Positions 1 through 97 of a stretch of 3,308 nucleotides of DNA are shown in pieces. The position numbers and the translations under genes are program-made. The DNA is taken from the NCBI RefSeq assembly GCF_003334765.1, contig NZ_QOWT01000070.1. One strand, given 5' to 3'. This DNA comes from Escherichia coli (GTDB lineage Bacteria; Pseudomonadota; Gammaproteobacteria; Enterobacterales; Enterobacteriaceae). Below the pieces are notes generated by a model, which was not told the DNA's origin, ran no database searches, and saw only the letters and a list, made by a program, of their open reading frames with translations. Position 1 is the stretch's first letter. Each line of letters opens with the position of its first letter.

Positions 1-75
1 TTATCGTGAGAGTAATTCATCGGCACGTTAAATCATATCAGGCGTAATACCACAACCCTTAAGTTAGCGCTTATG
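1..75 (+). mobile_element. IS186 (IS4 family) terminal segment, partial; element continues beyond the window start
   Basis: The reverse complement of 51-75 reads CATAAGCGCTAACTTAAGGGTTGTG, which I recall as the IS186 terminus (recollection, not searched). The boundary sits 22 bp beyond the hokC stop codon (98-100), matching the published K-12 arrangement. GC-rich flank GGATCACTCCCCGCC follows at 76-90, consistent with IS186 target preference. Exact boundary is uncertain by a few bp. Confidence 0.6.
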
Positions 76-97
76 GGATCACTCCCCGCCGTTGCTC

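Follow-up and report, generated by a model that had tools for sequence, protein, structure and literature searches.

An IS186 terminus beside hokC at the dnaJ-hokC site of Escherichia coli

The IS186 end beside hokC

A stretch of Escherichia coli chromosomal DNA of 3,308 nucleotides (hereafter the window) begins inside an insertion sequence that abuts the toxin gene hokC, which raises the question of which element this is, where exactly it stops, and how it came to lie there in the orientation opposite to that in K-12 MG1655. Read from left to right, the window contains an IS end, hokC/mokC/sokC, nhaA, nhaR, a fimbrial pseudogene remnant, and the start of an IS1. A preliminary description of the sequence had recognized positions 51-75 as the end of an IS186 and had pointed to a GC-rich host flank. 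The reverse complement of these positions is CATAAGCGCTAACTTAAGGGTTGTG, which starts with CATAAGCGC, and window 1-75 is identical to the left end of IS186A in MG1655. The flank GGATCACTCCCCGCC at 76-90 is half of the canonical IS186 target GGGG-ATCACT-CCCC. When window 1-90 was aligned in reverse to the left end of MG1655 IS186A, 75 of 75 IS bases matched, and the 4 mismatches all lay in the flank past position 75. The 23-mer CATAAGCGCTAACTTAAGGGTTG has a single exact match in the window, on the minus strand at 53-75 with 0 mismatches, and a chance resemblance was ruled out because none of 200 dinucleotide-preserving shuffles matched it, even with 3 mismatches permitted. The terminus itself is confirmed as real, and its interpretation as an IS186 end is supported. 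The features at this end are as follows.

Positions 1-20, minus strand: start of insL (6 codons, MNYSHD, plus 2 nt; reverse complement ATGAATTACTCTCACGATAA), with the ATG at 20-18; the gene exits through the left window edge
Positions 21-52, minus strand: IS186 subterminal leader separating the insL ATG from the terminal inverted repeat, with 100% identity to MG1655 IS186A at its left end
Positions 53-75, minus strand: IS186 left terminal inverted repeat (IRL), 23 bp, CATAAGCGCTAACTTAAGGGTTG, with its tip at 75
Positions 76-85: target-site duplication of 10 bp, copy to the right of the element, GGATCACTCC; in the complete genome NZ_CP019213.3 (L002) and in MG1655 (L001) these 10 bases also stand before the other IS end
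Positions 76-90: right part of the split target palindrome GGCGGGGATCACTCCCCGCC, which when uninterrupted has an 8-bp stem and a 4-nt loop

Because the insL ATG lies at 20-18 on the minus strand, 55 nt from the IS186 tip, window 1-75 is the left, transposase-proximal end of an IS186 copy; the explanation of which this forms part is, taken as a whole, nearly certain in our judgment. The reverse complement of window 1-20 matches the start of both MG1655 insL1 and the 370-aa transposase of L002. The whole 3308-bp window is matched at 100% over its full length in many complete E. coli genomes, L002 being one example, and it is not identical to K-12 MG1655. In L002 the IS186 is complete, with 1339 bp, and is the exact reverse complement of MG1655 IS186A with 0 mismatches. 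The terminal inverted repeats of the complete 1339-bp element are perfect over 23 bp, the same at both ends, and diverge beyond 23 bp. The window contains only 75 bp of IS186, and the genomes that are 100% identical over the window suggest that its own copy is full length and has the same left junction as theirs. Such a full-length copy would show, to the left of the window, the full insL, then CAACCCTTAAGTTAGCGCTTATG in reverse complement, and before it ...GTGGCGGGGATCACTCC.

To place the element in a family, we used the full 370-aa protein of L002, as the window encodes only 6 codons. In L002, insL is one uninterrupted 370-aa ORF with no frameshift and is annotated as an IS4-like element IS421 family transposase. 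The protein scored 133.3 bits against the NCBIfam model NF033592 (IS4 family; cutoff 115) and matched the Pfam domain DDE_Tnp_1 (PF01609) at 3.6e-26. It carries the Y(2)R(3)E(6)K signature (YREK motif) as YRLRWQIELAFKRLK at residue 305; the definition of this motif and the end signature of the IS231 subgroup, listed in Table 1 of the source, are taken from PMC2266710, whose main text does not name IS186. IS186 is an IS4-family DDE transposon. Like IS10, IS50, and IS231 of this family, it encodes a DDE transposase with Y(2)R(3)E(6)K in a single ORF, its tip is 5'-CA, and it duplicates about 10 bp; by analogy with IS10 and IS50 it probably shares their cut-and-paste cleavage chemistry. Its tip CATAAGCGCTAACTTAAGGG fits each specified position of the IS231-subgroup signature CAT-------AA--TAA---, and its duplications of 10-11 bp compare with 10-12 bp in that subgroup, whereas its 1339 bp lie below the typical subgroup size of 1450-5400 bp, so we do not claim subgroup membership. 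Its preference for GC palindromes is also much stricter than in these relatives.

Target, duplication and orientation

In the unbiased set of junctions (n=124), the unique flanks read GG-N6-CCCC in 69 cases, with N7 in 15 and N5 in 6. The IS186 target is GG|GG(A)NNNN(T)CC|CC, with cuts 10 bp apart. [quoted passage not shown] This target is in keeping with the GC specificity ascribed to IS186, for which published direct repeats include GGGGTGCCCCC (PMC12102499). At the dnaJ-hokC site the junctions are alike in L002 and MG1655, reading ...AAGTGGCGGGGATCACTCC|CATAAG... at one side and ...CTTATG|GGATCACTCCCCGCCGTTGC at the other. The preliminary description had suggested looking for a matching 10-12 bp direct repeat at the other IS186 junction; in the genomes 100% identical to the window, the 10 bp GGATCACTCC is present there.

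The target before insertion can be seen in genomes with an empty site. A single-copy empty site, ...GTGGCGGGGATCACTCCCCGCCGTT..., was found, with NZ_CP025916.1 among the genomes that carry it at 100% identity over 300 nt, and GGATCACTCC is single-copy in the empty-site genomes. The uninterrupted GGCGGGGATCACTCCCCGCC lies at 1636-1655 of the empty-site locus L005. As DNA it is predicted to fold into a hairpin of -10.8 kcal/mol (z = -4.5), and an RNA hairpin of the same target is predicted on the hokC strand. IS186 entered the GC-clamped palindrome GGCGGGGATCACTCCCCGCC (GGGG-N6-CCCC) between dnaJ and hokC; in the mechanism that we propose, it did so through staggered cuts 10 bp apart, and gap repair then duplicated GGATCACTCC (window 76-85). 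The site is one further example of the strong preference of IS186 for GGGG-N6-CCCC palindromes, and it leaves the current understanding unchanged.

Of the 35 complete elements, 22 show a duplication of 10 bp and 2 one of 11 bp, and the remaining 11 show none. The title of a 1986 study by Sengstag et al., as cited in PMC3562002, refers to duplications of variable length, with which the target derived here agrees. In the 11 complete copies without a duplication, the target halves differ between the two sides, which recombination between two IS186 copies or chimeric assembly could cause. Such loci include L025, L028, L047, L054, L071, L085, L113, L125, L140, and L161.

The closest known system is IS186A of K-12 MG1655 (insL1, b0016; L001 1891-3229, NC_000913.3). 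It is the same element, with 1339 bp and 0 mismatches, and shares the site, the duplication, the flanks, and the distance of 22 nt between the hokC stop and the IS tip, and it differs in orientation. In MG1655 insL is on the plus strand and the right IS end adjoins hokC, whereas in the window and in L002 insL is on the minus strand and the left end, with the insL start, does so. The window-type and MG1655 alleles are exact reverse complements within identical flanks and duplications. In the right-hand flank, MG1655 differs from the window by 2 SNPs and is without 89 bp beside the IS1 that the window keeps. Comparisons with K-12 at dnaJ-hokC should expect the element in the opposite orientation.

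We searched 5426 complete E. coli genomes with junction-spanning queries and found the window-type junction in approximately 938 and the K-12-type junction in approximately 819, and a contiguous empty site was present in approximately 3815. These approximate counts sum to 5572, which is 146 above the number of genomes, and the excess may reflect cross-matching to paralogous hok loci that bear IS186. The orientation is uncoupled from the 89-bp deletion beside IS1, 3.1 kb away, as all four combinations occur as perfect or near-perfect matches in a single piece. Both orientations and the empty site were found on the same local haplotype. In 6 genomes, the empty site lies on the exact haplotype of the window, with 100% identity over 1500 nt in one piece. 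A 3.5-kb query for the empty site on the K-12 haplotype was uninformative; matching pieces are joined across gaps as large as half the query length plus 500 bp, which let IS-bearing genomes score as full matches, and this query was replaced by the 1500-nt one. The IS sequence was likewise uninformative as a marker of descent for the two orientations, with IS186A, B, and C identical to one another and to most public copies.

The polymorphism is best explained by recurrent insertion into a hot spot in either orientation. With the empty site present on an identical haplotype, a fresh insertion into the symmetric hot spot is sufficient. A direct parallel is the lon-promoter site in E. coli B, where a new IS186 insertion at the same position and in the opposite orientation was observed in the laboratory (PMC3045373). 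That hot spot shares with the hokC site a GC-rich target and repeated independent insertions in either orientation (PMC3045373), and it differs in that a promoter is affected there, whereas at hokC the insertion lies in the 3' untranslated region of a toxin mRNA.

The alternative that survives best is that a single ancestral IS186 was inverted where it lay, with no independent insertions at all; its two 23-bp inverted repeats could, for instance, have recombined with each other. The inverted repeats extend to 26 bp at this site, the palindromic target adding CCC/GGG. That the two alleles are exact reverse complements with the same duplications and flanks would fit a flip, but a symmetric target predicts the same duplication in either orientation, and the identity of the three MG1655 copies means that IS identity is no evidence of common descent. 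The four combinations with the linked 89-bp deletion also speak for flipping, as does the generality of the polymorphism: of 31 flanks that the unbiased scans recovered two or more times, 14 show both IS ends. Against it stand the 6 genomes with the empty site on the identical 1500-nt haplotype, for which fresh insertion is enough, and the opposite-orientation insertions witnessed at lon (PMC3045373); in addition, no K-12 laboratory derivative is among the top window-type matches listed. On balance we consider a flip of one ancestral copy unlikely. In a more general form, IS186 might switch orientation in place at palindromic targets, by inverted-repeat recombination or through its transposase, and the polymorphism would then be a reversible flip. 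We regard this version as slightly less probable again; if it were true, the orientation polymorphism at many sites, including hokC, would be reversible and not the outcome of repeated insertion.

A different reading would give the window only a solo or truncated IS186 end, left behind by a deletion. The window starts within the IS, from which the completeness of the copy cannot be read directly, and the complete elements without matching duplications in public contigs (11/35) show that IS186-associated rearrangements occur. However, the insL start, the leader, and the inverted repeat are all intact in the window, the annotation of each listed 100%-match genome places an IS4-like (IS421 family) transposase at the IS end, and L002, which was checked base by base, has the complete 1339-bp element. 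The window-type junction was moreover found together with at least 150 nt of IS sequence in the approximately 938 genomes counted above. A solo end is thus very improbable. A complete element would also have, in the upstream 1.3 kb, the right inverted repeat and then ...GGGGATCACTCC in inverted register.

The boundary of the element

The three IS186 copies of MG1655 by themselves leave the end of the element ambiguous between window positions 74 and 78, because all three lie in GGGG-N6-CCCC targets (hokC, GGGGATCACTCCCC; hokE, GGGGAGTAATCCCC; nupC, GGGGATAATTCCCC) with TCCC/GGGA outside the core each time. To fix the end, we searched for the terminal repeat in viral and metagenome contigs, which yielded 129 unique flanks reading outward from the element. 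All 129 of these junctions have a G directly behind ...GCGCTTAT, which bears out the junction at 75/76 implied by the preliminary description, and the next two bases are G in 122 and 120 of them. The fourth base past ...CTTAT is A in 63, C in 19, G in 38, and T in 9. Non-canonical targets give unambiguous 10-bp duplications (CTGTAAATCC in L116, TCCCACACCC in L034, and GAGTGGATCC in L104), and the flanks there begin with GC, GT, GA, TC, or CT. These clean duplications require the IS to be CATAAG...CTTATG. Since the terminal G is invariant, the following bases vary, and the duplications at non-canonical targets fit no other ends, the last base of IS186 is window position 75, and the common copy is 1339 bp long and reads CATAAG...CTTATG. 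Length variants of 1338 and 1340 bp were found besides the common form. IS186B has been given as 1338 bp with GC-rich direct repeats (PMC12102499), an ISfinder-based length that compares with 1339 bp here.

An end at window position 78 with a 4-bp duplication, TCAC, as implied by the MG1655 GenBank feature (1345 bp, TCCCATAAG...CTTATGGGA), would agree with the 1345 bp annotated for each of IS186A, B, and C and with the TCCC and GGGA directly outside the CATAAG...CTTATG core in all three copies, but it is refuted by the variation of positions +2 to +4 past ...CTTAT among the 129 unique junctions and by the duplications at non-canonical targets, the shared TCCC/GGGA being target preference and not IS sequence, and we give it next to no credence. 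The annotated features concerned are the following.

L001 1888-3232: IS186A GenBank feature of NC_000913.3, 1345 bp
L003 2008-3352: IS186B GenBank feature of NC_000913.3, 1345 bp
L004 1274-2618: IS186C GenBank feature of NC_000913.3, 1345 bp

These features overextend the element by 3 bp per side (TCC...GGA), counting target bases as IS, presumably because TCCC/GGGA flank the core in all MG1655 copies. The practical worth of the present analysis is one of annotation, as it fixes the IS186 boundary and the 10-bp duplication for the dnaJ-hokC locus. The IS186 end beside hokC is otherwise ordinary, an already known element at a known site, with nothing novel about it.

hokC and the neighboring sequences

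The element abuts a hok/sok type I toxin-antitoxin locus, in which we found a Hok ORF, an overlapping mok frame, and a region of sok-type RNA. The features of this locus in the window are listed below.

Positions 98-250, minus strand: hokC (gef), 50-aa type I toxin, transferred from the MG1655 annotation (L001 coordinate minus 3154), with the stop at 98-100
Up to position 307: mokC reading frame overlapping hokC, transferred from the MG1655 annotation
Positions 248-400, minus strand: hok/sok regulatory region, matching Rfam sok RF01794 with 118.3 bits (gathering score 59)
Positions 299-357, plus strand: sokC antisense RNA, from the MG1655 annotation

The Rfam sok match is on the minus strand, that of the hokC mRNA leader, and the strand modeled in the overlap with sokC appears to be the sense one. 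Two strong hairpins are predicted in the approximately 100 nt downstream of the hokC stop: the target hairpin comes first, and the second is 3'-terminal and followed by UUUU. Neither was flagged as a canonical intrinsic terminator by a simple scan, the T-run being too short. Because the target hairpin begins 11 nt past the hokC stop, the insertion parts the hokC reading frame from approximately 75 nt of its native 3' RNA, including the 3'-terminal hairpin. For gef of K-12, the downstream IS186 is thought to disrupt the fbi (fold-back-inhibition) element and normal mRNA processing, and the mRNA ends within IS186 (PMC3562002). By analogy with K-12 gef, the insertion in the window may have a comparable consequence for the regulation of hokC.

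The orientation of the element bears on what such transcripts would contain. On the minus strand of the window, hokC and insL point in the same direction, whereas they are opposed in K-12 MG1655. From this geometry, transcripts reading through hokC would enter the IS in the sense direction of insL. Under the improbable reading in which IS186 switches orientation in place, such read-through might in addition tie the expression of the transposase to the promoter of a toxin gene.

The position of the insertion relative to hokC recurs elsewhere. Of 130 unique IS186 flanks, 10 contain a Hok-like ORF whose stop and the IS tip are approximately 22-31 nt apart; besides hokC and hokE, they include several paralogues from prophage-like contigs. 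Flanks of this kind are those of L009, L024, L027, L037, L039, L060, L119, L179, and L003, many of them on prophage-like contigs. IS186B by hokE and the other copies beside hok-family genes share with the window a homologous GC-rich hairpin just past the hok ORF (the hokE target is GCGGGGAGTAATCCCCGC), and they differ in lying at paralogous loci with other loop sequences. IS186 has repeatedly landed in the hairpin that follows hok genes, which extends the pattern of hokC and hokE in K-12 as the same phenomenon.

Other insertions occur in the same region. Two genomes of near-identical haplotype, NZ_CP038791.1 (H205) and NZ_CP086678.1 (H212), carry other insertions between dnaJ and nhaA; one contains an annotated IS4 family transposase with approximately 1.15 kb of extra sequence, and the other an IS5 element with approximately 1.2 kb. 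A match to the Rfam tpke11 sRNA (69.6 bits) was also obtained at 351-428 of L005, on the plus strand in the dnaK-dnaJ intergenic region of that empty-site genome; this RNA is known and is unrelated to the IS186 end.

At the right end of the window (3143-3308), the IS1 begins at position 3232, and MG1655 is without the 89 bp (window 3143-3231) directly beside the IS1 end. No matching 9-bp duplication was found around the IS1 in either the window type or MG1655. This suggests IS1-associated deletions here, with a further adjacent deletion in the K-12 haplotype. In the annotation of window-identical genomes, positions 3005-3232 on the minus strand are a fimbrial-family pseudogene that is missing its N-terminus and is truncated by IS1, and in some other E. 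coli genomes (H176 and H184) a fimbrial usher gene is annotated near there.
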